A DNA stretch of 64,000 bases from a virus, in the IMG/VR virus record IMGVR_UViG_3300022744_000003, positions 1 to 64,000 of that record. One strand, given 5' to 3'. Position 1 is the stretch's first letter; every line of letters begins with the position of its first letter. This document shows positions 1 to 53,314 of the stretch, one piece after another. A program made the position numbers and the translations under genes. Below the pieces are notes generated by a model, which did not search any database, was not told where the DNA came from, and worked only from the letters and a program-made list of their open reading frames with translations.

Positions 1-1026
1 AAGGCCGGGAAGACCAAGGCGGCCGGGTGGGGGGACCTCGCGCTCGACGGCAAGGTCGGACGTCACAGCCCGGTAAACGTCCGTCGCATCCCGACGTTCC
101 CCAAGACCCGCGGCGCTGCGGTGGGTGCGGCTGTTGGCGGCGCGGCGTTCGGGGCGTACGGGGCCGGCGTCGGGGCGCTGCTCGAGCACAAGCCCAAGAA
201 GAAGGGCAAGAAGGTCTCCAAGGCCTTCTTCGAGGACGTCTCCAAGCTCGGGGAGTGGAAGACGATCGAGCAGCGCGAGCGCGCGCAGCGCGGGAACCGC
301 AAGGTCAAGAACAACGCGATCGCGCTGGGTGCCGGCGGTGCCCTGGCGGTCGGCGGAACGACCGAGCTGATGCGCCCCGGTGCCACAGAGAAGCTCATCC
401 GTGGAGCGCGTGGCATCGCCCGCCAGGACAAGAACCTCCGCAGCCTCAACCACGCGGCCAAGGGTGCGATCGTCGACTTCCCCAAGCACGACCGCGCGAA
501 GTACGCGCTCCGCTCGGCCAAGGCCCTCCCCGGCCCCGCGAAGGTCGTCGGCGGGGCCGCGCTCGCAGGAGGTGCCGCCCTCGGCGTGGCCGGCGGCGCT
601 CGAGGCATGGAGGCCTACCACCAGAAGAAGATCAACCAGCGGCGCCGGGCGAACAAGGCCCGGGGCGTCTCCAAGGCCTTCTCCGAGCCGGTCGAGAAGT
701 TCAACCCCGTCCGCGCGGCCAACCTCTCGGTCGGCGTCGGCCGGATGATGGGCGCCAAGGCTCTGACCGGCACGTCCAGCATGGGGCAGAAGGCCCGTGC
801 GGGCGGTCTCGCCCTCAAGCGTCAGGCGCGCGGAGCGGTCGCGAACACCCCGACCCCGTTCAAGCCGCCGTCGCCGCTCAAGGTCGGCGCGCAGGCCAAG
901 GCGGGCGGGGCCGCGGCCTCGGCGGGCAAGTTCGTCCAGCAGAACCCCGGCAAGGCCCTGGGCCTGGCGGGCGGGACGATCGGCGTCGGCGGCACCGCCG
1001 GCGTGGTGGGAGCCAAGAGGAAGTGA
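1..1026 (+). CDS. basic Gly/Ala-rich protein, 5' partial (frame open to window edge), SKAF/ISK-motif family
   Basis: Frame 1 has no stop from nt 1. Matches ORF 121..1026 with high GC3. Gly-zipper stretches, KKKGKK and two VSKAF motifs. Stop overlaps the next start as GTGA. Confidence 0.6.
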   Translation, partial: KAGKTKAAGWGDLALDGKVGRHSPVNVRRIPTFPKTRGAAVGAAVGGAAFGAYGAGVGALLEHKPKKKGKKVSKAFFEDVSKLGEWKTIEQRERAQRGNRKVKNNAIALGAGGALAVGGTTELMRPGATEKLIRGARGIARQDKNLRSLNHAAKGAIVDFPKHDRAKYALRSAKALPGPAKVVGGAALAGGAALGVAGGARGMEAYHQKKINQRRRANKARGVSKAFSEPVEKFNPVRAANLSVGVGRMMGAKALTGTSSMGQKARAGGLALKRQARGAVANTPTPFKPPSPLKVGAQAKAGGAAASAGKFVQQNPGKALGLAGGTIGVGGTAGVVGAKRK

Positions 1027-2021
1027 TCTCCAAGCGCCGCCTCTCCGACACCGAGCTCGCTCACCGCAAGCGGGTCCAGGCCGGGACGTCCATGGCGGGA
1101 AGCGCAGCGGGCCTGACCTCGCTCGGCCTGCTCGGTGGTTCGGTCGTCGCACGGAAGAAGGGGCTCAAGGTGGCACCCAAGCTGAAGAACGCCTCGACCA
1201 ACGCCGCGATCACCGGCGCCGGCATCGGCGGCCTGAGCGGGTTCAACTTCGCCTCGATCCAGAACGAGGAGTCCAAGCGCCGCCAGCCGGTCTCCAAGAT
1301 GGGCGAGAAGATCGCCGCGCGGTACACCGCGACGATGCTGCACGGCGCGAAGCAGATGGAGCGCGGCAAGCACGCCAAGGGGTACAAGCTGCGCAAGATC
1401 GGTGCGGACGTCACCCGGTCGCTGGCCACCGACGCCACTCCGATCGCGCACGGTTTCTCCCGCGCCGCCAGCTCCTTGGCCAAGGCGTACGACCCGGAGA
1501 AGCGCCGCGAGCAGCGCGCCAAGGGCTACACCGCAGGCCTGGCCGCCGGGTCCGCCGGCGCCGCCGGGGCGAGCGGCGTGCTCGCGCTGCGCGCGGTGAA
1601 GAACCCCGCGGCCAAGGAGGCGGCCAACCTCAAGCGCAGCGAGGCCGCCTTCCGCGCGCAGGGCGACGCCCAGGCCGCGCTCGCGCCCAAGGTCGAGCGC
1701 CAGGGCAAGGCCGCCCAGACGTACGTCCCGAACATGCCGGCGAGGAACCGCGGCGGCCAGGCGTCCAAGGCCAAGGCCGAGATCGCCCAGGGCGAGAAGC
1801 TGGCGCAGGCCGCGGCCCGCAGCCGCAACGCGGCCGAGGGGGCCAAGTCGCTCGGCGAGGCGGCGACCCGCCGGTCCAAGGTGCTGCGCGGCGTCGGGCT
1901 CAAGCGCGCAGGCATCGCCGCGGGCGCATCGGTGGCCCTCGCGGGCGCCTCCGCAGCCAACGAGCACCACCGCAAGCGGGGCGGGAAGACGTACAACGGC
2001 TGGTGGGAGCACCGGTACTAG
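1023..2021 (+). CDS. basic Ala/Gly/Lys-rich protein (332 aa), unknown function, virion module
   Basis: Sensible C-terminal two-thirds of ORF 27..2021. GTG 1023 overlaps the upstream TGA. N-terminus is VISKRRLS. The Arg-rich upstream part of the long ORF looks off-frame. Confidence 0.6.
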   Translation: MISKRRLSDTELAHRKRVQAGTSMAGSAAGLTSLGLLGGSVVARKKGLKVAPKLKNASTNAAITGAGIGGLSGFNFASIQNEESKRRQPVSKMGEKIAARYTATMLHGAKQMERGKHAKGYKLRKIGADVTRSLATDATPIAHGFSRAASSLAKAYDPEKRREQRAKGYTAGLAAGSAGAAGASGVLALRAVKNPAAKEAANLKRSEAAFRAQGDAQAALAPKVERQGKAAQTYVPNMPARNRGGQASKAKAEIAQGEKLAQAAARSRNAAEGAKSLGEAATRRSKVLRGVGLKRAGIAAGASVALAGASAANEHHRKRGGKTYNGWWEHRY

Positions 2022-2100
2022 ATGCGAATTCGGGGCTGACTTCGCATCAAAGAGCCCGTTGCGCCTCCCCCCACGATGGAGGGAAGGAGGCGATGCAGAC

Positions 2101-2895
2101 ATGGCACGTCGGGTGAGCCGGCTGATCGGCATGGAGATCGACGAGATCTCCCTGGTGGACACGCCCGCAGCTCCCGGCGCCCGGGTCGTCATCGCCAAGC
2201 GGGCTACCGAGGAGGACCACATGCCCGAGATCTTCGACAAGGACGGGAACCCGGTCGACCCGGAGACCCTGGAGCTCGGTCAGCAGGTGTTCACCGCCGA
2301 CGGTCAGGCCTACGAGGTCGTGGTCGACGACGGCGAGGACCTGGACGAGGAGGACTACGACGAGGACGCGACCGACCTCTCGGAGGACCTCGAGCTCGTC
2401 GGCAAGGCCTTCACGGACGAGCTCCGCACGTCGCTCTCCAAGGCCGTCACCGACATCGAGCGCGACGAGGTCGTGAGCAAGGCCCTGGGCCGCGCCGCCC
2501 AGGCCGAGGCCCGCGCCGAGCGCGCCGAGGCGATCGCCAAGAGCGAGCAGACCATCCGCCTCGAGCGCGAGTACGTCGAGGTGGCCAAGCGCTACAACAT
2601 CCCGGCCGCCCCGGGCGTCCTGGGCCCGGTGCTCATGCGCATGGCCGAGACCATGTCGGACGCGGACTGCTCCGTCATCCACAAGGCTCTCTCGACTGCG
2701 GGCTCCGCCCTCTTCGACGAGATCGGCCTGATCGGCGGGGGCGACAACAGCGACCCGTTCGCGCAGGTCGAGGCGGCCATCGAGGCCCAGGTCTCGAAGA
2801 GCGGCCAGACCATCAGCAAGGCCGAGGCGACCGAGGCGTACTTCCTCGAGCACCCCGAGGCCTACGACGCCTACCTGCGTGAGCAGAAGGTCTGA
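2101..2895 (+). CDS. capsid scaffolding protein (vestigial prohead-protease-like EISLVDTPA motif at N-terminus)
   Basis: AAGGAGG lies 10 nt upstream of ATG 2101. Contains MEIDEISLVDTPAAPGA, then an acidic and coiled-coil rich body. Sits directly upstream of the decoration and capsid genes. Confidence 0.6.
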   Translation: MARRVSRLIGMEIDEISLVDTPAAPGARVVIAKRATEEDHMPEIFDKDGNPVDPETLELGQQVFTADGQAYEVVVDDGEDLDEEDYDEDATDLSEDLELVGKAFTDELRTSLSKAVTDIERDEVVSKALGRAAQAEARAERAEAIAKSEQTIRLEREYVEVAKRYNIPAAPGVLGPVLMRMAETMSDADCSVIHKALSTAGSALFDEIGLIGGGDNSDPFAQVEAAIEAQVSKSGQTISKAEATEAYFLEHPEAYDAYLREQKV

Positions 2896-2906
2896 GGAGG
2901 GACACC

Positions 2907-3332
2907 ATGGCGTACGAGGAGAGCCTCCGCTCGATCACGCTGAAGGCCGACAGCAACCTGGCGGTCTACACCGGCGTGGCGGGTATGCCGGGAGCCCCTG
3001 CGGCTCACGGCGGCAAGCAGTACCGCTTCGTGAAGGTCACGGGCGTCGGCACCGCCGGCCCCGCGGACACCACGGCCAACGAGGTCGTCATCGGCGTCCT
3101 CCAGAACAAGCCGCAGTACGTGAACCAGCCGGCCACCATCGGCATCAGCGGGGTCACCCTCGTCGAGGCCGGTGGCGCGATCACCGCGGGCAACGCCCTC
3201 AAGGTGAACGCCTCGGGCCAGGCGGTGGCAGCCACGCTGCCGGCCGACGCCGCGCTCGTCGTCGGCGTTGCCCTGTCCACCGTCACCACGGCCACGCACC
3301 TGGTGACCGCGCTGCTCCGCGTCAAGGGCTGA
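2907..3332 (+). CDS. head decoration protein (DUF2190-like)
   Basis: GAGGAGGG RBS. 141 aa with a Gly/Ala/Val-rich beta pattern (GISGVTLVEAGGAITAGNALKV) typical of DUF2190 proteins. Located just before the major capsid gene. Confidence 0.65.
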   Translation: MAYEESLRSITLKADSNLAVYTGVAGMPGAPAAHGGKQYRFVKVTGVGTAGPADTTANEVVIGVLQNKPQYVNQPATIGISGVTLVEAGGAITAGNALKVNASGQAVAATLPADAALVVGVALSTVTTATHLVTALLRVKG

Positions 3333-3345
3333 GGAGGGACCTGAC

Positions 3346-4350
3346 ATGCCGAACCCCGTTCAGTCCGACCTGCACGTCAACCAGCCGCTCACGAACGTCT
3401 CGGTCGCGTACGTCCCGAAGAAGACGGACTACATCGCGGACAAGATCTTCCCGATCGTGCCGGTCGAGAAGCAGTCGGACCTGTACCACAAGTACACCAA
3501 GTCCGACTGGCGTCGCACGGACGCGCAGAAGCGCGCGCCCGGCACCGAGGTCGCGCGGACCGGCTACAAGACCACGACCGACACGTACTACGCGTCCGTC
3601 ACGGCTGTGGCCAAGGCCATCGACGACCAGACCCGCGCCAACGCGGACTCGAACTTCAAGCTCGAGTCCGAGGCGACGCAGTTCGTCACCAACCAGCTCC
3701 TGCTCGCTCGCGAGATCGAGTTCGTCTCGACCTTCCTCTCGAGCAGCTCGGGCTGGCTGACGACCTACACCGGCGTCGCGGCGGCCCCGACGACCAACCA
3801 GTTCCTGCAGTGGAACGACGCCGCGTCGGACCCGCTGTCGGACATCGCCGACTGGAAGCTCGCCTTCCGCCAGCTCAACGGCTTCGACGCCAACACGCTG
3901 GTCCTCGGCCCGGTGGTCCGCAAGGTCCTGAAGAACCACCCGGACATCATCGACCGCATCAAGTTCACCCAGAAGGGCATCCTCACCGATGACCTCCTGG
4001 CTGCGCTGCTCGACGTCGACCGGGTCTTCACGATGTACGCGACCCAGGCGTCCGGCCCGCAGATCAACGACCCGGAGGACCAGGACGCTGCGGCGACCTA
4101 CGCCTTCGTCGCTGACGGCGCGGGCAAGACCTGCTGGTTCGGGTACGTCAACCCGACCCCCTCGCTCATGCAGCCGACCGCGGGCTACACCTTCACCTGG
4201 AAGGGGTACGCCGGCAACGACCAGGGCCTGCGCATCAAGCGCTGGCGCGACGAGCGCGTGGAGTCGGAAATCATCGAGGGCGGCATGGCGTACGCCATGA
4301 AGCAGGTCGCGACCGACATGGGCGTCTACATCGCCTCGGCGGTCGCCTGA
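3346..4350 (+). CDS. major capsid protein (lambda gpE-like family)
   Basis: GAGGAGGG RBS. 334 aa. The N-terminus (LTNVSVAYVPKKTDYIADKIFPIVPVEKQSDLYHKY) resembles the Phage_cap_E consensus. Followed by a hairpin terminator. Confidence 0.8.
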   Translation: MPNPVQSDLHVNQPLTNVSVAYVPKKTDYIADKIFPIVPVEKQSDLYHKYTKSDWRRTDAQKRAPGTEVARTGYKTTTDTYYASVTAVAKAIDDQTRANADSNFKLESEATQFVTNQLLLAREIEFVSTFLSSSSGWLTTYTGVAAAPTTNQFLQWNDAASDPLSDIADWKLAFRQLNGFDANTLVLGPVVRKVLKNHPDIIDRIKFTQKGILTDDLLAALLDVDRVFTMYATQASGPQINDPEDQDAAATYAFVADGAGKTCWFGYVNPTPSLMQPTAGYTFTWKGYAGNDQGLRIKRWRDERVESEIIEGGMAYAMKQVATDMGVYIASAVA

Positions 4351-4360
4351 CGTAGGAGCT

Positions 4361-4394
4361 GGGGCCCGTTCCTGAGGCGGGCCCCGGCTTCTCT
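4361..4394 (+). terminator. hairpin terminator after capsid gene
   Basis: GGGGCCCG (4361..4368) pairs with CGGGCCCC (4378..4385). Followed by GGCTTCTCT. Confidence 0.5.
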
Positions 4395-4415
4395 CCCGAA
4401 GGAGGAGGAAGCTTC

Positions 4416-4718
4416 ATGGCGACTCTCGGATTCCGCAAGGGCCCGGCCCGCGGCGGCGCGCACATGCGCGGCACCGTCGCGATCGACCCTGCTTCCATCG
4501 CGGCCGGCGCGTCCGGCACGACCACCGTCACCCTGGCGGGGCTCAAGTCCACCGACATCCTCGTGCTCGAGCCCCCGGCCGCGCTCGAGGCGGGCCTGTA
4601 CCCCAAGGGCGTCATCGCGGGCAACGGCTCGTTCCAGCTCATCCTGGGCAACCCCACGGCCGGCGCCGTGGACGGGACCAGCCGCACCTGGACCTACAAG
4701 GTCTACCGGCTCGTCTGA
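4416..4718 (+). CDS. small beta-rich virion-module protein, unknown
   Basis: GGAGGAGGAAG RBS. 100 aa ORF with high GC3. Confidence 0.6.
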   Translation: MATLGFRKGPARGGAHMRGTVAIDPASIAAGASGTTTVTLAGLKSTDILVLEPPAALEAGLYPKGVIAGNGSFQLILGNPTAGAVDGTSRTWTYKVYRLV

Positions 4719-4728
4719 TCGGGCTTGT

Positions 4729-4765
4729 GGGGCCGGAGATGCTGTAACCGGGCATCCCCGGCCCC
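4729..4765 (+). terminator. nested hairpin (terminator-like)
   Basis: GGGGCCGG (4729..4736) pairs with CCGGCCCC (4758..4765). Contains an inner GATGC/GCATC stem. TTCCC follows. Confidence 0.4.
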
Positions 4766-4782
4766 TTCCCATAGGAGGACCC

Positions 4783-5106
4783 ATGTACGTCGCTCGCCGC
4801 CCCCGCACCATCCTCGGCGTGGCCTACGCCCCCGGTGACGTGATCCCGGACGAGGTCTTCGACGCGCTCCCGCGCGGCTCGGCCCTGATCCGCTCCGGCC
4901 TGGTCGACTACAAGGGTGACAAGAACTACGACCCGACCAGCGTCCGCGCCTCGCGCGCGGCCCGCGCGGCGAAGATCGAGGCTGCCAAGGCCAAGGTCGT
5001 CGAGCCCGCGCCGCCGGTCGCGAAGAAGCCGACGACCAAGGCGGCGGCCAAGAAGGCGGCGCCCAAGCCCAAGACTCTCGTCCCGGCGAAGAAGGTGGCC
5101 TCGTGA
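4783..5106 (+). CDS. protein with histone-H1-like Ala/Lys/Pro C-terminal tail
   Basis: TAGGAGG RBS. 107 aa. C-terminus is AAKIEAAKAKVVEPAPPVAKKPTTKAAAKKAAPKPK. Confidence 0.6.
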   Translation: MYVARRPRTILGVAYAPGDVIPDEVFDALPRGSALIRSGLVDYKGDKNYDPTSVRASRAARAAKIEAAKAKVVEPAPPVAKKPTTKAAAKKAAPKPKTLVPAKKVAS

Positions 5107-5252
5107 ACCCGTTCGGCGTCCAGCACACGCCCATCTCCAAGGGCTCGCCCAAGCTCGGCCTGCGTCTGATCGAGACGTACGGCAAGAAGCCGACCAAGAC
5201 CGTCAGCCAGGTCAAGGCGTCCATGGGTGGGAAGACGAAGAAGGCGTCGTGA
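5103..5252 (+). CDS. small basic protein (49 aa), FGVxH N-terminal motif family
   Basis: GTG overlaps the upstream TGA (GTGA). Translates as VNPFGVQHTPISKGSPKLG...KTKKAS. Too short for the ORF track. High GC3. Confidence 0.5.
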   Translation: MNPFGVQHTPISKGSPKLGLRLIETYGKKPTKTVSQVKASMGGKTKKAS

Positions 5253-5659
5253 TCTCGGCCTTCGGGGTCGAGCACGGAGAGGTCTCCAAGCTCCAGGACC
5301 CCAAGCGCAGGACGGTGCCGGACTGGCTCTCGCCGGTCCTGCCGGCCTCGACCGTGCGCGCGTACGACAAGTCGAAGAAGAACAAGCTCGAGGCGGCTGC
5401 AGGGAACCTCGGCGCCAAGACCATCGGCGGCGCAGCCGGCGCAGCGCTCGGGCTGGGCGCGGCCACCATCGCAGGGAAGAAGATCAAGGTCCTGCGCGAA
5501 GGGGTGAAGGTGGCCGGGCACTCCGTCGACGCCAAGACCCTGCGGGGCTGGACCCAGGCCACCGCATCCTCGGGCGCGGGCGGTGCAACCGGAGGAGTCC
5601 TGGGCGGCGCTCACCTGAGCCGCGTCAAGGAAGACAAGAAGCGCTACGACTACCAGTGA
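5249..5659 (+). CDS. basic Gly/Ala-rich protein (136 aa), SAFGVxH N-terminal motif family
   Basis: GTGA overlap start. Begins VISAFGVEHGEVSKLQDPK. Has a Gly-zipper GGAAGAALGLGAATIAG. Corresponds to the tail of ORF 4916..5659. Confidence 0.6.
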   Translation: MISAFGVEHGEVSKLQDPKRRTVPDWLSPVLPASTVRAYDKSKKNKLEAAAGNLGAKTIGGAAGAALGLGAATIAGKKIKVLREGVKVAGHSVDAKTLRGWTQATASSGAGGATGGVLGGAHLSRVKEDKKRYDYQ

Positions 5660-5705
5660 AGGTTGCTGGCACCCCTAGCCTGACAGTAGGACCACAGGAG
5701 GACAC

Positions 5706-6623
5706 ATGGACGGCAACGTCGGCATGAGCGGCGAGCTCGGCATTCAGCAGGTGGCGTTCGGCGCGCGCGGGCGTACCCCGCACCGCATCCGCCAGATCCG
5801 CACGCCCTTCGGCCGTGTCATGTTCTCCCGCGACCGCGGCGACAGCGTGATGCGCGGCCGCGAGCACTTCGCGACCAACCTGTGCGCGGTGCACCGCGAC
5901 GGCGACGGGCGCATCAAGGACGAGATCGACCTGGGCTCCGGCCTGGTGACCAACGTCGGCGTGCTCGCCATGGCCAACGACTGGGCCTGGCCGACCTCGG
6001 CCGCGACCATCGCGCTGAACACCCTGCGCGTGGCGAACTTCCACGCCACCGGCACCGGCGCCACCGCCGCGGCCGCCACCGACATCAAGCTGCAGACGCC
6101 CTCGACCCAGGGCGGCCAGACGGTCGTCACCGGCACCCAGTCGCTCGTCTCGGCCGCCAACAGCCAGAGCTACCGCACGGTCGCCACGATCTCCTACACC
6201 GGCACCGAGGCCGTGACCGAGTGGGGCCTGTTCACCACGCTCGGCGCGATCGGCGGCACGGCCCTGTCGAGCGCCACCGGCTCGCCGTTCACCGCGGGCT
6301 CTGCGACCACCGGCACCGTGACGGCCACCCCGCTCACCGCGTCCGGCAACGGCACCCAGGGCCAGACCCTGACGATCGTCGAGAACACCGGAAACGCGAC
6401 CCCGCACTGGGGCCTCATCACCTCGAACACGACCTCCGTGGTCACCGTGCCGGCCTGGTACAAGGTCTCGGACGGCACCGCGGCCGGCACCACCCCGGCG
6501 AACACGAACACCCTGGTGTTCCGCCCGGTGATGTGGGACCACAAGGTCTTCTCCGCGATCAACGTCGTCAACGGCGACTCGATCCAGTTCACCTACACGC
6601 TGCTGGTCAACTCCGGCGGCTGA
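5706..6623 (+). CDS. fibre/receptor-binding-like structural protein
   Basis: AGGAGG RBS. 305 aa, Thr/Gly/Ala-rich. The pattern GLVTNVGVLAMANDW...ATGTGATAAAATD...TEWGLFTT recalls the small fibre-module fold seen at 55208, 55645 and 62355. Confidence 0.6.
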   Translation: MDGNVGMSGELGIQQVAFGARGRTPHRIRQIRTPFGRVMFSRDRGDSVMRGREHFATNLCAVHRDGDGRIKDEIDLGSGLVTNVGVLAMANDWAWPTSAATIALNTLRVANFHATGTGATAAAATDIKLQTPSTQGGQTVVTGTQSLVSAANSQSYRTVATISYTGTEAVTEWGLFTTLGAIGGTALSSATGSPFTAGSATTGTVTATPLTASGNGTQGQTLTIVENTGNATPHWGLITSNTTSVVTVPAWYKVSDGTAAGTTPANTNTLVFRPVMWDHKVFSAINVVNGDSIQFTYTLLVNSGG

Positions 6624-6635
6624 TCGGAGCCTGGC

Positions 6636-7571
6636 ATGACGTTCGCCAGCGACGGCAAGCCCCACACCGACGCCCTCGACGCGTTCCTGGCGGCTGCGGA
6701 CTCCACCGTGGCTGCTAAGGACGCCGAGATCGCCGCGCTCAAGGCCAGGATCGCCGAGCTCACCACGCCCCCGCCGGTGGTCGTCCCGCCCACGGGGCTG
6801 CTGCCGTACGCCCCGCCCGCGGGCTGGCAGAACTACCCGAAGATCACGGTGCCCTCCACCGGAGTCGTCTCCGTGCCGGCCGGGACCGACGCGCTGATCG
6901 TCTGCCCGTCGACCATCACTGTGCCGGTCACCATCAAGGGCGGCCGCAACCGGGTGGTGTGGGACCTGCGCCTGGGCGGGCGCACCGCGGTGCCGTCCGG
7001 GTCGTACGACTCGACCAACCGCGGCATCCGCCTGTCCGACGGCGACGACGCGGGCATCGACCACCTCGAGGGGATCTACGGCCTGCCCGGCACGTACTTC
7101 TCGGACTTCATCCAGATCGCGATCCGGACCAACAACCGGCGCGTGGTGCAGATCCAGAACGCGCGCAACGACGGCACCACCTACGGAACCTCCGGCACGG
7201 TGCACGCCGACGTCATCCAGTGCTGGGGCGGCCCCTCGACCCTGCGGGTGCACAACCTCACCGCGAAGCGGATCGGCTACCAGGGCGCCTACATGGACGC
7301 CGGGGACGGGCGCACCCTGCCCGCGCAGCTGGACCCGTGGCGGTTCTCGAACATCAACTTCGTCGGCCTGTCCGGTGCGAAGTACCTGTTCGCCGACCGC
7401 CAGCCGGCCTTCACCCGCGCGACCGCGAGCGAGGTCTTGATCTCCGGCTCGCCGTACAACAACTCCGACTCCTTCGGCAACGCCCCGGCGGGGGTGAAGG
7501 TCGGCACCGTGGCGGACTTCGTGCCCGCCTCGCTGTTCGCTGGTCCGTACGTCTCGCCCGGCTACGTCTGA
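6636..7571 (+). CDS. tail-spike/fibre protein with coiled-coil neck and beta-helix-like C-terminal domain (putative depolymerase)
   Basis: 311 aa. Has an AKDAEIAALKARIAEL neck. The C-domain is paralogous to 56296..56976 (GGRNxVW...GGRTxVPSGSYDSxxRGIR...HADxIQxWGGP...YVSPGY). Confidence 0.65.
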   Translation: MTFASDGKPHTDALDAFLAAADSTVAAKDAEIAALKARIAELTTPPPVVVPPTGLLPYAPPAGWQNYPKITVPSTGVVSVPAGTDALIVCPSTITVPVTIKGGRNRVVWDLRLGGRTAVPSGSYDSTNRGIRLSDGDDAGIDHLEGIYGLPGTYFSDFIQIAIRTNNRRVVQIQNARNDGTTYGTSGTVHADVIQCWGGPSTLRVHNLTAKRIGYQGAYMDAGDGRTLPAQLDPWRFSNINFVGLSGAKYLFADRQPAFTRATASEVLISGSPYNNSDSFGNAPAGVKVGTVADFVPASLFAGPYVSPGYV

Positions 7572-7594
7572 TCCCGATCGCTGAGAGGTAGGCC

Positions 7595-8704
7595 GTGGCC
7601 GACGCAGACGTCACCATCACCGCAGGTACCGGGACCAAGATCGACACCCGGACCGTCGGCGCGGGAACGGACGAGCACCGTCAGGTGATGGTGATCGGCG
7701 ACCCGGTCACCGCGGCGAACGTCGCGTCGGTCACCGCCGCGGGCGAGCTCGAGGTCCGGGTCCCGAACACCATCGGCACCGGAACCATCACCGCGACCGA
7801 CGCCCTCGGTGGTACGCCCGCCCAGACCGGAACCCTGATCTCGACGGCTCCGACGGCATCGTCGTTCGTCGCCATGGCGCTCACGGGCGGCGAGTCCTCC
7901 GTCACCATCCAGGCCACCGGGACGTTCGGGTCGGGAAGCCTGTGGATCGAGGGGTCGCTGGACTCCACCAATGGCTCCGACGGCAACTGGTACCTGCTCC
8001 CGGTCCGCGCCATCGGCGATCTCTTCGCGCCCGGAACGGTCGGGAGCATCACCGCAGGCAGGGCGCTGAGGGTTCCCGGCGGTATGAACTACATTCGCGC
8101 TCGGCTCACGGGCGCCACCGCTCCGTCGGTGTCGATCAGGTTCAGCGCATCCGCCGGCACGCAGGCCGTGAGCCTGTCCGACTACTCCGCCGCGCCCTTC
8201 ATCACGAAGGGCTCGCAGGGCGCGTCGGGATACACCACCCAGGACCTCAAGGACGCCGGACGTACCTACGTCTCGTTCTGGGCCAACGCCGCAGCCGCTG
8301 GCGCGACCGGTGTCGAGACGGCGATCACGCTGACGCGATCCAATGCCACGTTCGGCGGCACTACCTCGACCGGCTCCTCGTTCACCCCGACCTCCGGCAA
8401 GCGGTTCCGCATCCAGCAGATCCTTGTCGGCAGCCGAGGCAACACCACGGCCACCGCGCAGATCACGACGTTCAACTTCCGTGTCAACACGGCGGGTGCG
8501 GTCACGACCACGTCGAACATCATCACCTCGACCGCGACCGCAACGCCGGCTACGGCTCTCGCATGGGACCGCGCGCAACTGATCATCCCGGACGGCCTGG
8601 AGTTCGCCGGAGACGGAACGCTCCAGTGGGGCATCACCGCCGCCGCCACGTTCACGACCAACGCACCGACCTGGTTCGTCAACGTCATCGGCTTCGAGTA
8701 CTGA
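7595..8704 (+). CDS. structural protein with two beta-sandwich-like halves, unknown
   Basis: GTG start after GAGAGGTAGG. 369 aa, Thr/Ala/Gly-rich. Ends WFVNVIGFEY. Confidence 0.6.
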   Translation: MADADVTITAGTGTKIDTRTVGAGTDEHRQVMVIGDPVTAANVASVTAAGELEVRVPNTIGTGTITATDALGGTPAQTGTLISTAPTASSFVAMALTGGESSVTIQATGTFGSGSLWIEGSLDSTNGSDGNWYLLPVRAIGDLFAPGTVGSITAGRALRVPGGMNYIRARLTGATAPSVSIRFSASAGTQAVSLSDYSAAPFITKGSQGASGYTTQDLKDAGRTYVSFWANAAAAGATGVETAITLTRSNATFGGTTSTGSSFTPTSGKRFRIQQILVGSRGNTTATAQITTFNFRVNTAGAVTTTSNIITSTATATPATALAWDRAQLIIPDGLEFAGDGTLQWGITAAATFTTNAPTWFVNVIGFEY

Positions 8705-8719
8705 TCCGGGAGGCCCTGC

Positions 8720-11700
8720 ATGAGCCTCCTCCTGCTGCTCAAGCCGCGGGGGCCGCTGGTCACCACGGGGTCCAGCAGCATCGCCGGCGCAGGCGCGTGC
8801 ACCATCACGCTCCCGACGTACGTGTCCCAGGACGGCTTCGTCTACGTCTTCGCCAGCCGGTCGTCGGTCGGCAACGCGCTGACCAGCATCACCGACACCT
8901 CGGGCGCGACCTGGACCGACATCACCAACAACGGTGCTGCCGGGCCCTTTGACGCGAACTCCTCGTCCCGGCACTACCTGTGGCGCGCGCCGTGGACCTC
9001 GGCGATGTCCGGCGCGGTGGTCACCGTCACCTTCGCCGGGACCAACCAGACCGCACTGGCCTACGCCCGGGTGGAGTGGACCGGCTGCACCCACGACCAG
9101 GTGGTCATCGCCGGTACCGGCGCGGACAGCACCCCGCCGATCAACCTGACCTCCCCGGCGGTGACTGCGGGCGGGTCCGACTCGATCGACATCGCGTTCC
9201 ACGGCGGCCGCGGCACCACGGTAGCCACCTTCACTCAGCCCACCATCAGCGTCACCGCGGCGGGCTGGGGTGGCACGAGCTCGGCGAGCTCGACCAGCAC
9301 CACCGCCACCAACGCCTTCGCGGGTGCGGGCTGGAAGTTGACCAACGGCTCGACCACCATCGCCTCGGCCTCCGACTGGGAGGCCAGCGATTCGGTCAAC
9401 GCCCGGGCCGCCGCCACCGTCACCCTGCTCTACAGCCCGACCGGGTCCACCGCCTACACCCAGGGCGTGTCCGGCACGCTGGGGTTCACTGGTGCCGCCC
9501 CCAAGCGCGCGAACAAGACGCTGGCCGCGACCAGCTCGTTCACCGGGACCGCGCGCAAGGCGACTACGCGCGCCCTGGCCGCCGCGCTCACCTTCGTCGG
9601 GGCCTTCCTGCGCGCCTTCCCCAAGACGCTCTCGGCGTCCCTGGGGTTCGTGGGGTCGACGGCGAAGCGCGCGAACAGGGCACTGACGGCCTCGTCCACG
9701 TTCACCGGCGCCGACACCGCACGGACCTCCCGGGCGCTCTCGGCCGCCGTGGGGTTCGCCGGGTCCACTGCGAAGCGGACGAGCCGCGAGCTGAGCGCCG
9801 CCCTGTCCTTCGTCGGCTCGATCGCCACCGCCCTGATCCCGGGGACCACCCAGTACACCAAGGACCTGGCCGCGACGCTGTCGTTCGCCGGGGCCGACGC
9901 CGCCCGGACGGCCCGCTCGCTGGCCGCGAGCCTGTCCTTCGCCGCGACCGACGCCTTCCGGACGAGCCGGGCGCTGAGCGCCGCCGTGGGCTTCGTGGGG
10001 ACGGCGTCCCGGCGTACCGCCAGGACGCTGGCGGCGGCACTGGGCTTCACCGGGTCGGACACCGCCCGGACCTCCCGCGCGCTGACGGCCTCGCTGTCGT
10101 TCGTCGGGACCACGACCAAGAGCATCCCGCGCGCGCTGGCGGCATCCCTGGGGTTTGCCGGGTCCGTCGCCAAGCGCACGGCGCGGTCGCTGTCGGCGAC
10201 CCTGACCTCGAGCGGGACGACGACCACCAGTTCGGTCCTGACCCGTGCCTTCAGTGCGGCGCTGTCGTTCGCCGGAACAGCGACGAGGCAGACCACCAGG
10301 CCGCTGAGCGCCGCCGCCGGGTTCACCGGGTCGCTGGCCCGCCGCACCTCCCGGAGCCTGTCCGCCGGCCTGAGCACCGCCGGGTCGCTGGCGCGCTCCA
10401 TCCCGTTCCGGCTGAGTGCGGCGCTCGGCTTCGTCGGGGCGGCGACCCGGCGCACGGCGCGCTCGCTGGGAGCCGGGCTCACGTTCACCGGAACCGTGTC
10501 CTCGGCCTCCGTGCTGACCCGCGCTCTCACCGCGAGCTTGTCCTTCACCGGGACGGCCGCGCGCAGCACCGCCCGGCCGCTGGCGGCCGCGCTGTCGTAC
10601 GCCGGGGCGATCTCGCGGCGCACCTCCCGCGCGCTGGCGGCCGGCCTGTCCTTCACCGGGGCGCTGGCCCGCTCGTTCCCGTACCGGCTCACCGCGGCGC
10701 TGTCGTTCACGGGCGCGACCGCCAAGCGGACCGCGCGCAGCCTGGGGGCAGGCCTGTCCTTCGTCGGGTCAGTGGTCTCGACCTCGGTGCTCACCCGGGC
10801 CTTCACCGCCGCGGTCGGGTTCGCCGGGTCGGTGTCCAAGCGCACTGGCAAGGCCCTGTCCGGCGGGCTGTCCTCGGGCGGGACGCTGTCCCGCGCGATC
10901 TCCCGACCGCTGGCTGCGGGCGTGTCGTTCGCCGGCGCGACGGCCCGGCGGACCTCTCGCGCGCTGTCCGCGGCAGCGACCTTCGCCGGGGCGACGGCCA
11001 AGCGGACGAGCAGGTCGCTGGCCGGGTCGTTGAGCTCGGCCGGCACCCTGGGCAAGCAGGCAGGCAAGGCTCTGGGCGCCGCGCTGTCGTTCGGCGGCTC
11101 GCTGGCCCGAACCACCGTCCGGGCTCTGAGCGCCGCCGTGTCCTTCGTCGGGGGGCTGGCCAGCAACCTGGTCGGCGGCCCGGTCTCGTACGTCCAGAAC
11201 CTCTCGGCCACCCTGGGGCTCACCGGGGCGTTGAGCCGCCGTACCTCGAGGAGCCTGGCTGCGGCCGGCGCGTTCACCGCCGCCCTGACCAAGCGGACTT
11301 CGAGGTCCCTGTCGGCGGCATCCGGGTTCGCCGGCGTGCTGGCCAAGCAGACCTGGAAGTCCCTGGCCGGAGCCGCGTCGTACGCCGGGTCCGTCGCGCG
11401 ACGTACCGGGAAGGCGCTCACGGCCGGGGCGGGTTTCACGGGGAACATCGTCCGGCGCACGGCACGGGGCCTGACGGCATCACTCGCCCCGAGCGGCGCG
11501 CTGGCCAAGCAGACCCGGAGGGCCCTGGGAGCCGCTGCGGGCTTCGTGGGCGCCCTGACGCGCTCGCGGACGTATCTCGCAGCCCTGAACGCCTCCATCG
11601 GCTTCACGGGCTCCCTGGCGCGCCGCACGGGGAAGTCCCTGGCGGCCGCCCTCACGTCGTCCGGGACGATCGTCCGGGCGGTCGGCAAGACGCTGGCCTC

Positions 11701-11902
11701 GGCCCTGAGCTTCACGGGAAGCCTGATTTACTCGGGCGGCCAGGCGGCCAAGATCGCAGCCGGGAAGGTCGCAGGCGCAGTGGGGCGGCTGTTCCGCGCC
11801 GACGCGACCGGCGGCCCGGACTCGACCGACGCCACCGGGCTCCCCGGGTCGGGCAAGGGCAAGGGCGGGCCCGGACGCTCCGGAGCCCGGAAGAGGTCTT
11901 GA
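8720..11902 (+). CDS. giant repeat fibre-like protein (1060 aa): globular N-domain plus about 41 x 18-aa basic repeats
   Basis: GGGAGG RBS. Repeat consensus is LSAALSFxGxxxKRTxRx. The opposite-strand ORF 9454..11715 is a shadow ORF. Confidence 0.8.
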   Translation: MSLLLLLKPRGPLVTTGSSSIAGAGACTITLPTYVSQDGFVYVFASRSSVGNALTSITDTSGATWTDITNNGAAGPFDANSSSRHYLWRAPWTSAMSGAVVTVTFAGTNQTALAYARVEWTGCTHDQVVIAGTGADSTPPINLTSPAVTAGGSDSIDIAFHGGRGTTVATFTQPTISVTAAGWGGTSSASSTSTTATNAFAGAGWKLTNGSTTIASASDWEASDSVNARAAATVTLLYSPTGSTAYTQGVSGTLGFTGAAPKRANKTLAATSSFTGTARKATTRALAAALTFVGAFLRAFPKTLSASLGFVGSTAKRANRALTASSTFTGADTARTSRALSAAVGFAGSTAKRTSRELSAALSFVGSIATALIPGTTQYTKDLAATLSFAGADAARTARSLAASLSFAATDAFRTSRALSAAVGFVGTASRRTARTLAAALGFTGSDTARTSRALTASLSFVGTTTKSIPRALAASLGFAGSVAKRTARSLSATLTSSGTTTTSSVLTRAFSAALSFAGTATRQTTRPLSAAAGFTGSLARRTSRSLSAGLSTAGSLARSIPFRLSAALGFVGAATRRTARSLGAGLTFTGTVSSASVLTRALTASLSFTGTAARSTARPLAAALSYAGAISRRTSRALAAGLSFTGALARSFPYRLTAALSFTGATAKRTARSLGAGLSFVGSVVSTSVLTRAFTAAVGFAGSVSKRTGKALSGGLSSGGTLSRAISRPLAAGVSFAGATARRTSRALSAAATFAGATAKRTSRSLAGSLSSAGTLGKQAGKALGAALSFGGSLARTTVRALSAAVSFVGGLASNLVGGPVSYVQNLSATLGLTGALSRRTSRSLAAAGAFTAALTKRTSRSLSAASGFAGVLAKQTWKSLAGAASYAGSVARRTGKALTAGAGFTGNIVRRTARGLTASLAPSGALAKQTRRALGAAAGFVGALTRSRTYLAALNASIGFTGSLARRTGKSLAAALTSSGTIVRAVGKTLASALSFTGSLIYSGGQAAKIAAGKVAGAVGRLFRADATGGPDSTDATGLPGSGKGKGGPGRSGARKRS
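9467..11730 (+). repeat. degenerate 54-bp tandem coding repeat with a 276-bp super-repeat
   Basis: About 41 units. SVLTRA(F/L) units recur at 10232, 10508 and 10784, exactly 276 bp apart. Confidence 0.85.
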
Positions 11903-11923
11903 TCGACAGGGGACGATGGAACT

Positions 11924-12709
11924 GTGACGCCTGACATCCTGCTCCGCTTCGGCAACCGCGCGCCCCTGCTGCAGCGGGTCCTCGAGGTCGACGGCATCGT
12001 CCTGGACCTCACCGACGCGACGGAGGTCCGGTTCAAGGCCTCGGGCGCCTCCGGGGTGGTCATCAGCGGAACCTGCACCATGGCGACCGACCGGACCACC
12101 GGCGAGGTCACCTACGCCTGGTCGGCCCAGGACGCGCTGGTCCCGGCCGGCTTCTACCAGTGCTGGTTCGAGGTCGACTTCCCCGGGTCGGTCGGGCTCA
12201 CCCTGCCCAACGCCACGTACCTCGTCCTGCAGATCACCGCGCTCCTGCAGGGGACCTGGTCCTACTCCGGCGACCCGTCGAGCTCCGACCGCGACGCCGT
12301 GCGGTACTACCTCGGGGACACCGACCCCGACGACCCCCTGGTCAGCGACGGCGAGATCGACTTCCTGCTGGCCGAGTGGCTGCCGGTGTCGAACTCCAAG
12401 CTGATCGTGGCGGCCGTGGCGGCCGAGAACCTCGCCTCGAGGTACGCGCGCGAGGTCGCCGTCTCCGCGGACGGCGTCACGGTCGCGCTCCAGGACCTCA
12501 TGGACCGCTTCCTCGCCCTGTCCGGGCGGCTGCGCTCCCAGGACGCCCAGCGCAACATCGGCGGCCCGGACGTCGGCGGGGTGGACCTCAACGACGTCTA
12601 CGACCCCTCCGTCAAGCCTCTGAACTTCTCGGTCGGGATGCACGACAACTACCGCGGCGGCGGCCAGGGCGACTACCGCGGCGACGAGTACTACGGGGGC
12701 GTGTGGTGA
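11924..12709 (+). CDS. head-tail connector/adaptor protein with N-terminal Ig-like extension
   Basis: GTG start. 261 aa. The C-half DAVRYYLGDTDPDDPLVSDGEIDFLLAEW...AAENLASRYA resembles gp6-like connectors. Confidence 0.55.
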   Translation: MTPDILLRFGNRAPLLQRVLEVDGIVLDLTDATEVRFKASGASGVVISGTCTMATDRTTGEVTYAWSAQDALVPAGFYQCWFEVDFPGSVGLTLPNATYLVLQITALLQGTWSYSGDPSSSDRDAVRYYLGDTDPDDPLVSDGEIDFLLAEWLPVSNSKLIVAAVAAENLASRYAREVAVSADGVTVALQDLMDRFLALSGRLRSQDAQRNIGGPDVGGVDLNDVYDPSVKPLNFSVGMHDNYRGGGQGDYRGDEYYGGVW

Positions 12710-43206: not shown

Positions 43207-43625
43207 TGGCCGACTCCCTGAGCGAGAAACAGCGCCGGCGCGTAGCGCAGCGCTCCCACGGACGCTGCGAGGCCCTGGTGCTGGTGGGGGCGGCCAAGAT
43301 CCGCCGCGGCCTGCAGACCGAGGACGAGGAGGTCTGGGTCCGCTGCTACGACTGGGCGACCGAGATCCACCACCTGCTCAAGCGGAGCCAGGGCGGCGAC
43401 CTTCTGGACCGCGTGAACGAGGTTTACCACCTGGCCCACCTGTGCTCGAAGTGCCATCGTGACACCGAGGGCGCCGAGGCCTACGAGACCGGGGCGCTGA
43501 TCGCAGGGCAGGTCCACTGGGACGCCTTCCGTTCGCTGCCCTACTACGTCGGCCCTGACGAGTACCTGACCCTGACCTATCCGCCCGACCTCATTGGGAG
43601 ACACCGTGCCGACCCTGACCGATGA
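43206..43625 (+). CDS. HNH endonuclease
   Basis: TGATG overlap start. Contains HGRCE...EIHHLLKRSQGG...NEVYHLAHLCSKCH. Confidence 0.7.
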   Translation: MADSLSEKQRRRVAQRSHGRCEALVLVGAAKIRRGLQTEDEEVWVRCYDWATEIHHLLKRSQGGDLLDRVNEVYHLAHLCSKCHRDTEGAEAYETGALIAGQVHWDAFRSLPYYVGPDEYLTLTYPPDLIGRHRADPDR

Positions 43626-44766
43626 CAAGACCGTCCTGTCCTGGGCATCCACCCTCGAGCCCCAGGCGCTCGAGCAGGCCCAGCGCACCGCCTCGATGCC
43701 CTTCGTGGTGAAGCCGCTCGCCCTCATGCCCGACGCCCACCTGGGCAAGGGCTCGACGGTGGGCTCGGTCATCGCGACCGAGGGCGCGATCATCCCGGCG
43801 GCGGTCGGGGTCGACATCGGCTGCGGCATGGCCGCGGTCGAGACGCGCCTGACCAGCCACGACCTGCCGGACAACCTCGACGAGCTGCACCGCCGCATCC
43901 GCCAGGCCGTCCCGGCCGGCGTGGGCCAGGGGCACGAGTTCCACAACGTCGACGTCTTCGACGTGCTCAAGCGCCCTGCTCCGGACCTCAACGACAAGCA
44001 GGTGGCCACGGCGCGCTCGCAGTACGGGACGCTGGGCTCGGGCAACCACTTCGTCGAGGTCTGCCTCGACGAGCGCGACCGGGTCTGGATCGTCCTGCAC
44101 TCGGGCTCGCGCGGCATCGGCAACCAGCTCGCGGTCGGCCACATCAAGAAGGCCACGGGCCTGATGAAGGACTACTTCATCAACCTGCCGGACCCCGACC
44201 TCGCCTACCTCGTGCACGGCACCGACGAGTTCTGGGCCTACATCCGCGACCTGCTCTGGGCGCAGGAGTATGCCTTCGCCAACCGCGCGCGGATGCTGGC
44301 GCGCGTCCTCGAGGAGTTCGAGGACTTCCTGCACCTGAGCGACACCCAGGTGAGCCAGGTGAACTGCCACCACAACTTCACCCAGCAGGAGAACCACCGC
44401 GGCCGCAACCTCTGGATCACCCGCAAGGGCGCGATCCAGGCCAAGACCGGGCAGAAGGGCATCATCCCCGGCTCGATGGGGACGCGCTCCTACATCGTCG
44501 AGGGCCTGGGCAACGTCGCCTCGTTCGAGTCGTGCTCGCACGGCGCCGGCCGACGCCTGTCGCGCACCGCGGCGAACAAGACGCTGTCGGTGGCCTCGCT
44601 GCGCGACGCGATGGAGGGCAAGACCTGGAACGAGTCCCAGGCTGAGGCCTTGGTCGACGAGCACCCGCTCGCCTACAAGGACATCGACCAGGTGATGGAG
44701 GACCAGAAGGACCTCGTCCGCCCGCTGCACACGCTGCGCCAGATCCTCAACTACAAGGGAGTCTGA
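43606..44766 (+). CDS. rtcB: RtcB-family RNA ligase
   Basis: GGGAG RBS before GTG 43606 (ORF track offers TTG 43594). Contains MPDAHLGKGSTVG, DIGCGM, GSGNHF, HSGSRG and SCSHGAGR. Confidence 0.9.
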   Translation: MPTLTDDKTVLSWASTLEPQALEQAQRTASMPFVVKPLALMPDAHLGKGSTVGSVIATEGAIIPAAVGVDIGCGMAAVETRLTSHDLPDNLDELHRRIRQAVPAGVGQGHEFHNVDVFDVLKRPAPDLNDKQVATARSQYGTLGSGNHFVEVCLDERDRVWIVLHSGSRGIGNQLAVGHIKKATGLMKDYFINLPDPDLAYLVHGTDEFWAYIRDLLWAQEYAFANRARMLARVLEEFEDFLHLSDTQVSQVNCHHNFTQQENHRGRNLWITRKGAIQAKTGQKGIIPGSMGTRSYIVEGLGNVASFESCSHGAGRRLSRTAANKTLSVASLRDAMEGKTWNESQAEALVDEHPLAYKDIDQVMEDQKDLVRPLHTLRQILNYKGV

Positions 44767-49972: not shown

Positions 49973-50309
49973 GATCGGGCTGAACCTCAAGAACGAGGCC
50001 GTGCAGGAGGCCGTGGACGCCGCGGCTGCATCCGGTCTGGGACAGACCACCAAGCTGCTCATCAGCGAGGCGGTGACCACGAGCTCCCACTTCCAGGTCG
50101 TCGAGCGCGAGCTCGAGCGCGTACCGAACGACCTGGACTACCGCCACCTGGCGCTGACGACCGCGGTCCAGGCGCGCTCGTACCGGGAGGCCGACGCCGC
50201 CGAGGGTGCCTTCACGACGCTGATCCAGCGCGCGCAGGTCTACGAGCACTACCTGCGCACGGGCGAGCTGCTCACCCTCGTCGAGGTGAAGGAGGGCGAG
50301 GCGCCGTGA
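49959..50309 (+). CDS. hypothetical protein (116 aa)
   Basis: ORF track entry with high GC3. Confidence 0.55.
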   Translation: MAQNEIGLNLKNEAVQEAVDAAAASGLGQTTKLLISEAVTTSSHFQVVERELERVPNDLDYRHLALTTAVQARSYREADAAEGAFTTLIQRAQVYEHYLRTGELLTLVEVKEGEAP

Positions 50310-51764: not shown

Positions 51765-51836
51765 GCCGTTGTGGTCTAGTGGCTTGGGCCCCTGCCTTCC
51801 AAGCAGGAGACGGGAGTTCGATTCTCCCCAGCGGCT
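51765..51836 (+). tRNA. tRNA-Gly (anticodon UCC)
   Basis: Hand-folded. Acceptor GCCGTTG/CAGCGGC. Anticodon arm CCTGC-CTTCCAA-GCAGG. T-arm GGGAG-TTCGATT-CTCCC. No encoded CCA. Confidence 0.8.
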
Positions 51837-51837
51837 C

Positions 51838-52298: not shown

Positions 52299-53093
52299 AT
52301 GACGAACGCCTTCGGCGTGGTCCACAAGCGCCAGCAGCGCAGCGCCACCGAGCGCCAGGCTGCTGGCGCCGTGGTGGGCGGAGCCGCCGCGCAGGGCGTG
52401 TACCAGGGCTCGGGGTACGCGGCCAAGCACGTCATGGACTCGACGAAGTTCCGGTCCAAGATGACCAACCGCGACTCCAAGCGGGTGAACTCGGCGAAGA
52501 AGGCCGCGGGCATCCCGGTGGGCCAGGCGGTGCGTGCCCAGGACTACGGGCGCAACTACGTCGACTTCTTCCGCTCCTACCCCCGCGACGTGCCGGGGTG
52601 GAGGGCGCGCCGGCTCATGGCCCGCACGCACGGGGGCAAGACCGGCACCATCGTGGGCGGGGCGGTCACCGCGGCGGGAGCCGTGGGCGGGGTCAAGCTG
52701 GCCCAGACCACCCAGAAGAAGCCCAAGAGGCAGAAGATCCGGGTCACCCCGGTGAAGAAGTCCTTCGAGCGGGGCGAGGAGCGCTGGGCGCCGCCGTGGG
52801 AGGTCAGCAAGGGGCTGCCCAGCTCCCTGCGACGCGGCGTCGACAAGGACGCGCTGATGATGATCCCCCGCGACCCCAAGAGGCCGTTCGACGGCGCCAG
52901 CCGGCTCGGTGACGGGATCTCCTACAGCCAGTCCCGTGTGATGGCCAACCAGCTCGGCCAGCGGGCGGCGAAGCGCATCAAGAACACCCGCCTGGCCCGC
53001 AAGCCCGCCGCGCAGCAGGAGTGGGCCCGCCAGGCCGCACGGGACATCGACGAGGGAGAGGCGTTCCGGAACATCTCTCGAGGGAAGAAGTGA
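52299..53093 (+). CDS. basic protein (264 aa), AFGVVHK N-terminal motif family
   Basis: Begins MTNAFGVVHKRQQRS. Has the Gly-rich hydrophobic segment GGAVTAAGAVGGV. Lys/Arg-rich. Confidence 0.65.
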   Translation: MTNAFGVVHKRQQRSATERQAAGAVVGGAAAQGVYQGSGYAAKHVMDSTKFRSKMTNRDSKRVNSAKKAAGIPVGQAVRAQDYGRNYVDFFRSYPRDVPGWRARRLMARTHGGKTGTIVGGAVTAAGAVGGVKLAQTTQKKPKRQKIRVTPVKKSFERGEERWAPPWEVSKGLPSSLRRGVDKDALMMIPRDPKRPFDGASRLGDGISYSQSRVMANQLGQRAAKRIKNTRLARKPAAQQEWARQAARDIDEGEAFRNISRGKK

Positions 53094-53314
53094 TCAGCGC
53101 CTTCGGGGTCGTGCACAAGGGGATGCCGCCCAAGAAGCTGAAGGCGCTCGGCGGCGTCATAGGCGGCGGCTCCCCCCTCATCGGGTACGGGCGGGTCGCC
53201 CGCAAGCCGTTCGATCCCGACCCGCTGACCAAGGACCCGTTCAACCGCGAGGTCAGGCGGCTGGCTCGGCAGAAGCGCGCGGTCGAGGCCCTGAAGCTGC
53301 CGAGGAAGCGATGA
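53090..53314 (+). CDS. small basic protein (74 aa), SAFGVVHK N-terminal motif family
   Basis: GTGA overlap start. Translates as VISAFGVVHKGMPPKKLKALGGVIGGGSPLIG. Tail of ORF 53021..53314. Confidence 0.55.
   Translation: MISAFGVVHKGMPPKKLKALGGVIGGGSPLIGYGRVARKPFDPDPLTKDPFNREVRRLARQKRAVEALKLPRKR

Follow-up and report, generated by a model that had tools for sequence, protein, structure and literature searches.

The window analyzed here, a 64,000-nucleotide stretch of viral DNA (positions 1 to 64,000 of IMG/VR virus record IMGVR_UViG_3300022744_000003), encodes basic proteins that share a short N-terminal peptide tag with the core AFGV. The tag was found on five proteins, designated C1, A1, A2, B1, and B2, and it is conserved as protein rather than as DNA. 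Our favored reading, to which we give a probability of roughly 55%, is that the tag is an excisable head-targeting peptide put on diverse proteins encoded within the head-morphogenesis module; as a whole, this reading rests on sequence patterns. The source lineage is one of uncultured siphophages, probably of actinobacteria. The tagged proteins, the internal tag copies of C1, and the related protein C2 are as follows (GC3, G+C content at third codon positions).

1..1026, plus strand: C1, basic and Gly/Ala-rich, its gene immediately following that of the protease; the window holds the C-terminal 341 of its 415 amino acids; GC3, 0.92.
214..246, plus strand: degenerate internal tag of C1, VSKAFFEDVSK, situated where two modules meet; its aligned counterpart in the C1 homologue of locus L007 is that protein's N-terminal tag, MSANAFGVEHEVSK.
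667..699, plus strand: second degenerate internal tag of C1, VSKAFSEPVEK; its aligned counterparts are full internal tags, VAKNAFGVEDSISK in L007 and VAKSAFGVEHGAPISK in L005.
1023..2021, plus strand: C2, a basic, Gly/Ala-rich protein of 332 amino acids that starts V-I-S-K-R; it has the Lys site only, and the AFGV core is absent.
5103..5252, plus strand: A1, a basic protein of 49 amino acids with the tag VNPFGVQHTPISK at 5103-5141.
5249..5659, plus strand: A2, a basic protein of 136 amino acids with the tag VISAFGVEHGEVSK at 5249-5290.
52299..53093, plus strand: B1, a basic protein of 264 amino acids with the short tag MTNAFGVVHK at 52299-52328.
53090..53314, plus strand: B2, a basic protein of 74 amino acids with the short tag VISAFGVVHK at 53090-53119.

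The tag has the form [M-x]-S/N-A-F-G-V-x-H-(0-5 residues)-hydrophobic-S/A/H-K. A six-frame translation of the window contains exactly four copies of the pattern [AP]FGV.H, which occupy residues 3-9 of A1, A2, B1, and B2, and mononucleotide shuffles of the window give 0.07 copies. The first base of the window falls inside C1. The window is identical to the public contig pieces L009 and L010 over 14,350 overlapping bp, and joining it end to end with these pieces yields a genome of ~75.6 kb, in which the full C1 open reading frame (ORF) could be read from L009; its true N-terminus is a full tag, MTTNAFGVEHDSPISK, located 222 nucleotides upstream of the window (L009 position 6434). A hidden Markov model (HMM) of the tag had five matches in the reconstructed 75.6-kb genome (19.8 to 27.3 bits), all at ORF starts, and the next best match scored 2.9 bits.

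The ORFs of A1, A2, B1, and B2 had been proposed, with these N-termini, in an initial annotation made from the DNA sequence, and they were confirmed here, with GC3 values of the coding type (0.89 to 0.96). That annotation had described three tandem pairs forming a six-member family. For the pair at the window start, the internal VSKAF stretches align with full tags of homologues; C1 is cut by the window edge and its start lies at MTTNAFGVEHDSPISK instead. C2 begins with V-I-S-K only and, as it has no AFGV core, was ruled out as a tagged member; there are thus five tagged proteins and one relative rather than six equal members. Homologues of C2 begin TLAK-R or MTFSK-R or are fused to C1 via KVAK-R. 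All six proteins are Lys/Arg-rich, as had been noted, with isoelectric points (pI) of 10.1 to 11.5 and Lys plus Arg contents of 16 to 24%, versus 10.8% for the proteome. Gly/Ala zipper-like segments had been ascribed to all six; C1, C2, and A2 are Gly/Ala-rich as whole proteins (30 to 35%). The GTGA coupling within pairs, presented as a special trait, proved to be ordinary, since 38 of the 109 same-strand neighbor pairs are joined by GTGA or ATGA 4-bp overlaps. Searches of Pfam and PHROGs with C1, C2, A1, A2, B1, and B2 assigned them to no family.

The motif always overlaps start codons in the window, and it could on that account be a nucleotide-level signal at gene starts, acting in translation initiation or regulation, rather than a peptide. 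Codon usage effectively refutes this, and we regard it as extremely improbable. Among 19 tags, four different codons (TCG, AGC, TCC, and AGT) are used for the Ser, and there is free variation in the codons for Gly, Val, and Ala. Since Ser codons of both the TCN and the AGY type are used while the amino acids stay constant, a DNA- or RNA-level motif is rejected, and the synonymous codon turnover points to purifying selection on the peptide. In addition, the motif also occurs at internal and C-terminal positions, described below.

Conservation of the peptide is clearest in the A2 family. The 90%-clustered protein collection contained 11 relatives of A2, and a profile search of the 50%-clustered library retrieved 55 representative proteins at an E value of ≤0.001, the last two of which were evidently spurious. 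The N-terminal tag (M-x-S-A-F-G-[VI]-x-H...) was kept in 52 of the 61 A2-family proteins retrieved, with body identities down to about 36 to 40%. The tag varies in length (AFGVSK, AFGVEISK, AFGVVHK, AFGVEHGxISK, and AFGVEHTYNISK), and in this family a hydrophobic residue followed by Ser, Ala, or His nearly always precedes the first Lys after the core. The A2 body has a conserved LPASTVRAYD motif and a Gly/Ala-rich hydrophobic segment. In related contigs, the homologues of A1 and A2 retain both the tag and the tandem arrangement, and the A1 slot holds tagged homologues in L003, L005, L007, L013, and L014.

IMG/VR was scanned for DNA encoding AFGV[ED]HG with no assumption about its context, giving at least 150 matches; the counts of loci and ORFs that follow are those among the matches listed. 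In 64 of these, the core was preceded by Ser and a start codon lay exactly three codons upstream, and 62 were chance-like. When the loci were searched more loosely, 48 proved to bear tags, 28 of them with at least two and some with up to five. Homologues of the major capsid protein (MCP), scaffold, cement protein, protease, MuF, portal, or TerL of this phage were present in 43 of the 48 loci, their MCPs being 47 to 82% identical to that of the window. Tagged ORFs recur in three places: the TerL-portal gap, the gap immediately behind the protease, and the gap separating the MCP from the connector genes. Long tags and short AFGV[VI]HK tags may occur within one locus (L024/L121; L053 has AFGIIHK), as in the window.

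The initial annotation had placed all of the pairs in virion-gene neighborhoods. C1, C2, A1, and A2 are in the head module, but B1 and B2 are not among the head genes proper; the late gene block begins with them, ~12 kb ahead of TerL, and they adjoin a PHROG "tail protein," RuvC, and WhiB. Their location, together with Gly/Ala-rich segments whose Kyte-Doolittle means reach 1.3 to 1.6 over 19 residues, would suit non-virion small membrane proteins with roles in lysis control, superinfection exclusion, or as membrane assembly chaperones, the tag serving oligomerization or membrane delivery. We consider this quite unlikely. Signal-peptide features are absent from the tag, and the hydrophobic segments are at the limit of what could span a membrane. 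In 43 of 48 loci, tagged genes lie within the TerL-to-connector block, and the prohead protease itself has a tag-like motif (see below).

The bodies that carry the tag are diverse. With the tag removed, 98 tagged ORFs fell into 65 BLASTP clusters. Pfam searches with ten fused A2-family proteins and ten long tagged IMG/VR proteins gave nothing usable. One tagged family has invariant HExxH and REE.RAD motifs (HExxH...REE.RAD; L065 4912, L099 7545, L108 6353, L130 6058, L024 11162, and P0024); its usual place is the TerL-portal gap, and it resembles a zinc metallopeptidase. ParB-like strings were seen in some tagged proteins of related loci. Neither the HExxH nor the ParB-like assignment gained support from Pfam or PDB searches, including a profile search with the HExxH cargo alignment. 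Parts of the bodies recur in other slots: the middle module of B1 is common to head-slot proteins of other phages, with residues 53-129 matching a C1-C2 fusion in L013 and residues 89-182 matching an A1-A2 fusion in L011. In the C1 homologue of L007, an internal module that starts with an internal tag matches the A1-slot protein of L013. A given module may thus occupy different slots and may be part of a fused gene or have a gene to itself, the tag lying at its edge.

That the same modules exist both fused and split, with the motif where they join, and that the internal copies in the C1 protein of the window are degenerate could also mean that the motif is a remnant of ancestral head-polyprotein junctions with no present function. 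This is very improbable in our view: the N-terminal copies are conserved better than any other part of these proteins, whose bodies cannot be aligned, and the synonymous codon turnover signifies purifying selection.

The arrangement at fusion junctions and at C-termini relates the core to a Lys residue. In the examples examined, junctions retain the tag with a Lys 1 or 2 residues ahead of the core (FKS-AFGV, KKS-AFGV, RKS-AFGV, and VAKS-AFGV). The AFGV[DE]HG core was also found at the extreme C-terminus; the five cases examined each have a Lys 1 to 10 residues upstream of it:

L051, ~2670-2700: C-terminal core.
L044, ~9349-9375: C-terminal core.
L027, ~488-515: C-terminal core.
L119, ~1980-2006: C-terminal core.
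L024, ~9067-9091: C-terminal core.

These proteins are encoded in the C1/C2 slot or before the portal gene, and their cores have no following Lys site. The ORF in L051 ends with RKSSVSGGALSAFGVDHGYVR directly before the stop codon, and the next, ATGA-coupled gene is a C2 homologue beginning MTFSK-R, as if the tag were split over two genes. In the cases examined, a Lys site thus connects the core with the body, whether the body precedes or follows the core.

The Lys context at the end of the tag recurs in the scaffold, and further similarities involve the protease and the MCP, which are encoded next to C1 and C2.

L009 5185-6411, just upstream of the window: XkdF-type prohead protease, with a Peptidase_S78_2 domain at residues 266-399.
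2101..2895, plus strand: acidic scaffolding protein (pI 4.3), with PHROG matches on the C-terminal parts of protease-scaffold fusions.
3346..4350, plus strand: MCP, lambda gpE-like, identified by tblastn to annotated MCPs; its N-terminus is MPNPVQSDLHVNQPL.

Scaffolds are a classic substrate of prohead proteases. In the scaffold of this phage, [VIL][SA]K holds 7 of the 11 Lys residues (0.4 to 0.5 expected; P < 0.001), and an eighth lies in VIHK, like the VVHK of B1 and B2. In 15 further scaffolds (43 to 61% identical), 116 of 192 Lys residues are in the context hydrophobic-[SAEHT]-K, versus 16.4 expected. The C-terminal end of the tag, hydrophobic-S/A/H-K, matches this dominant scaffold context, and VVSK-AFG also occurs inside scaffolds. 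The protease gene matched PF14550 (Peptidase_S78_2) with 47 to 58 bits in this phage (47), L005, and L007, against a cutoff of 24 bits; a PDB sequence search with the protease returned nothing. Hydrophobic-Ser/Ala/His-Lys is a candidate cleavage rule for XkdF-type prohead proteases.

The same data would also be compatible with the tag being a protease-recognition propeptide only, with no targeting role: basic proteins that are membrane-active or bind DNA would be inactive until ~12 residues were removed, and any entry into the head would depend on other parts of them. The match between the hydrophobic-S-K tag end and the dominant scaffold context agrees with this, and the VVSK-AFG sequences in scaffolds may simply mean that AFG is preferred after the cut. 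At true N-termini, however, there is nothing to cut ahead of AFGV, yet AFGVxH is the best-conserved part, and the core also stands at extreme C-termini where no Lys site follows. A binding epitope fits these two observations better than a cleavage determinant does, and we judge the propeptide-only explanation unlikely.

The protease contains a degenerate, stretched tag (EAFGGAIDPRELVSK) near its N-terminus. After the Lys site of this tag (…ELVSK), the sequence continues with MNDPSEVHVNGP (M-N-D-P-S-E-V-H-V-N) and, in relatives, with MNPTQSDL or LQDPSEVHVNQPL. This post-Lys segment is nearly a copy of the MCP N-terminus, MPNP[TV]QSDLHVN.PL (positions 3346-3390 for the MCP of the window). The same MCP-like peptide follows the Lys site in three tagged A2-family proteins, P0037, P0042, and P0056 (at an internal site in P0056). 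When an HMM of the MCP N-terminus was run against 1.9 million residues, 7 of the 20 best non-MCP matches, including the four best, were post-Lys segments of proteases or tagged proteins. In the proteome of this phage, the protease ranked first with the same HMM, with only 1.4 bits, and the copy of the MCP N-terminus is persuasive only across several phages.

By mimicking the N-arm of the capsid protein, the MCP-like peptide after the Lys might serve as another loading signal. Combined with the tag, it suggests a more elaborate variant, in which the core would be a strand-docking cargo-loading peptide, usable at either protein end and binding as an extended strand to the inner face of the HK97-fold MCP or to the scaffold, and the MCP N-arm mimic would complete a programmable two-signal system for loading fast-evolving injected proteins. 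Phages would then have an equivalent of encapsulin cargo loading, with which the system might share its ancestry. This variant is unlikely as it stands.

Under the favored head-targeting reading, the AFGVxH(G) core would dock the protein to a procapsid component, the candidates being the protease, the acidic scaffold, and the inward-facing side of the MCP. The XkdF-type prohead protease would then cut after the Lys between the core and the body, as the sequence pattern suggests, and would take the scaffold apart at sites of this type as well. Once trimmed, the basic proteins would stay with the DNA inside the head, some of them at least leaving along with it at infection. The tagged proteins (pI 10 to 11.5) and the scaffold (pI 4.3) are complementary in charge. 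The weakest step concerns C1, A1, A2, B1, and B2, which are very basic and have weakly hydrophobic helices rich in Gly/Ala: our guess is that they might be internal head or ejection proteins, with helices that bind DNA and/or insert into the membrane, and not enzymes.

Several observations weigh against the head-targeting reading. B1 and B2 are located outside the head genes proper, and searches found no full-length homologue of B1 and, for B2, only B2 itself. For the cultured phages with the most closely related MCPs (Salgado, ValentiniPuff, Kharcho, and KPP23), the tag HMM had no match in the head region, tblastn searches for cultured relatives with A2 and C2 gave no match, and no prophage copy was detected in GTDB representative genomes. 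The AlphaFold2 model of A2, built from a 12-sequence alignment, was uninformative (predicted local distance difference test score, 50). A mild excess of the Lys context was also seen in the tape measure protein (7 versus 3.1), and the enrichment in scaffolds could reflect a structural repeat of the scaffold instead of cleavage sites. A literature search yielded no documentation of the cleavage specificity of XkdF-type proteases. Finally, the matches of the MCP N-terminus in proteases are each weak when taken singly (E values of about 1 to 25).

Neither a description of this tag nor a cultured phage carrying it was found, and no Pfam or PHROG family matched the proteins that bear it. As a principle, such tagging is already known from the capsid-targeting sequence (CTS) of T4, the propeptides of giant phages, and the targeting peptides of encapsulins. 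In the myophage T4, the CTS is cut off by the prohead protease at a consensus site, and the cargo genes are hypervariable, with cargo that is often basic; the gp21 protease cuts after Glu, and gp22 is the scaffold core. The CTS sequence itself is presumably unlike the tag described here. As a short conserved N-terminal peptide, the CTS directs diverse internal proteins (IPI to IPIII and Alt) into the prohead (PMC3012670). The present case is similar in that one short N-terminal peptide is common to unrelated proteins of a single phage (five tagged ORFs). Unlike in T4, the protease is of the XkdF/S78_2 type with a putative site after Lys, the acidic scaffold is separate, the phage is a siphophage, and the core also occurs internally and at C-termini. 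The suggestion in the initial annotation that the tag resembles the T4 CTS as a targeting or propeptide sequence is consistent with all of the computational tests, but there is no homology to T4, and the likeness is best described as functional and non-homologous.

Propeptides of giant phages vary in length and sequence and, as far as is known, have only the cleavage consensus in common, whereas a defined core of 6 or 7 residues is conserved here besides the putative site. In phiKZ-like giant phages, a single prohead protease (e.g., SPN3US gp245) removes N-terminal propeptides from many head proteins at a short consensus (PMC10052503, PMC7411985). Encapsulin targeting peptides are short terminal sequences by which diverse cargo is loaded into a shell with the HK97 fold; those of Family 1 follow the consensus SDGSLGIGSLKRS, with TVGSL variants known at N-termini (PMC8346489). 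Their pattern, hydrophobic-G-hydrophobic ... hydrophobic/S-K, resembles AFGV..ISK, by eye only. However, the encapsulin peptide stays on its cargo, encapsulins have neither a protease nor a scaffold, and binding occurs via an N-terminal helix of the shell that phage MCPs lack (PMC8346489). The locus described here has portal, scaffold, protease, terminase, and tail genes, unlike encapsulin loci, and its peptide is flanked by putative cleavage sites.

In HK97, the MCP delta domain serves as the scaffold, and separate tagged cargo proteins are not known. The prohead protease of HK97 cuts after Lys, at K103/S104 (PMC10275583). In HK97-type maturation, the co-assembled serine protease, which cuts after Lys, destroys scaffold function (PMC10275583), and a serine prohead protease gene is likewise present in the same module here. 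The MuF-linked polyvalent proteins and toxins bring diverse effector modules into the capsid and typically contain zincin-like HExxH and ParB-like modules (PMC5512222). Similarly, MuF is encoded beside the protease here, and HExxH and ParB look-alikes occur among the tagged proteins of related loci. In contrast to polyvalent proteins, in which the modules are joined to MuF or to one another in one giant polypeptide, the tagged ORFs of this phage are separate small genes (49 to 415 amino acids), each with its own tag and without MuF, which is itself a separate gene of 757 amino acids.

If the tag is a loading signal, the set of head-carried and probably injected proteins could be read straight from sequence. 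Proteins of this kind stand at the forefront of the conflict between phage and host, and it normally takes proteomics to see them. Variability within the tagged set is high, with 98 ORFs in 65 clusters, and some members contain HExxH. The capsid-targeting principle, established mainly in T4, would then extend to lambda/HK97-like siphophages with a different protease, hydrophobic-Ser/Ala-Lys would become a testable cleavage rule for XkdF-type prohead proteases, and a tag of ~12 residues would be available for packing foreign proteins into phage capsids.

The genome has a G+C content of ~70% in the window. The MCP is at most ~44% identical to those of cultured phages (tblastn, annotated MCPs), which infect Arthrobacter, Microbacterium, Pseudomonas, and Rhizobium, and a megablast search of window positions 1-12000 against INPHARED gave only 41-bp matches to two Arthrobacter phages, so that no close cultured phage exists in these comparisons. 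The late genes begin with two tRNA genes, B0, B1, B2, RuvC-like and WhiB-like genes, and several genes for virion-type proteins. They continue with TerL, a Mu-like portal, a 1,099-amino-acid protein, MuF, the XkdF-type protease (Peptidase_S78_2), C1, and C2, followed by the scaffold, cement protein, MCP, p100, p107, A1, and A2. After A2 come four large proteins, connector genes, the tail tube, and the tape measure protein of this siphophage. Two further genes of the head module are as follows.

2907..3332, plus strand: head decoration/cement protein, with a weak Phage_cement_2 match; its position is kept in all related loci.
4783..5106, plus strand: p107, a protein of 107 amino acids, GTGA-coupled to A1; a conserved neighbor without the tag.

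The two tRNA genes, tRNA-Gly(TCC) and tRNA-Gln(CTG), lie back to back at 51765-51913, directly upstream of B0-B1-B2. The 1,099-amino-acid protein in the portal-MuF gap (L010 16160-19459, outside the window) matches no Pfam family and is conserved at this place in many of the loci that have tags. Positions 8720-11902, which separate the head genes from the connector genes, encode a protein of 1,060 amino acids that has no PHROG match and consists nearly entirely of tandem short Ala/Ser/Thr/Arg/Gly-rich units (…RRTSRALSAALSFVGS…). Paralogous virion-type proteins with a common C-terminal domain (…GGRN.VVW…GGRT.VPSGSYDS..RGIR…) are encoded at two distant places, 6636-7571 and 55645-56976. Two other virion-type proteins, of 145 (55208-55645) and 512 (62355-63893) amino acids, each match PHROG 240 and Pfam Gp80. 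The phage also encodes both an RtcB-type tRNA-splicing ligase (43606-44766) and a separate RNA ligase (50306-50872), which suggests an RNA-repair capacity against host anticodon nucleases.

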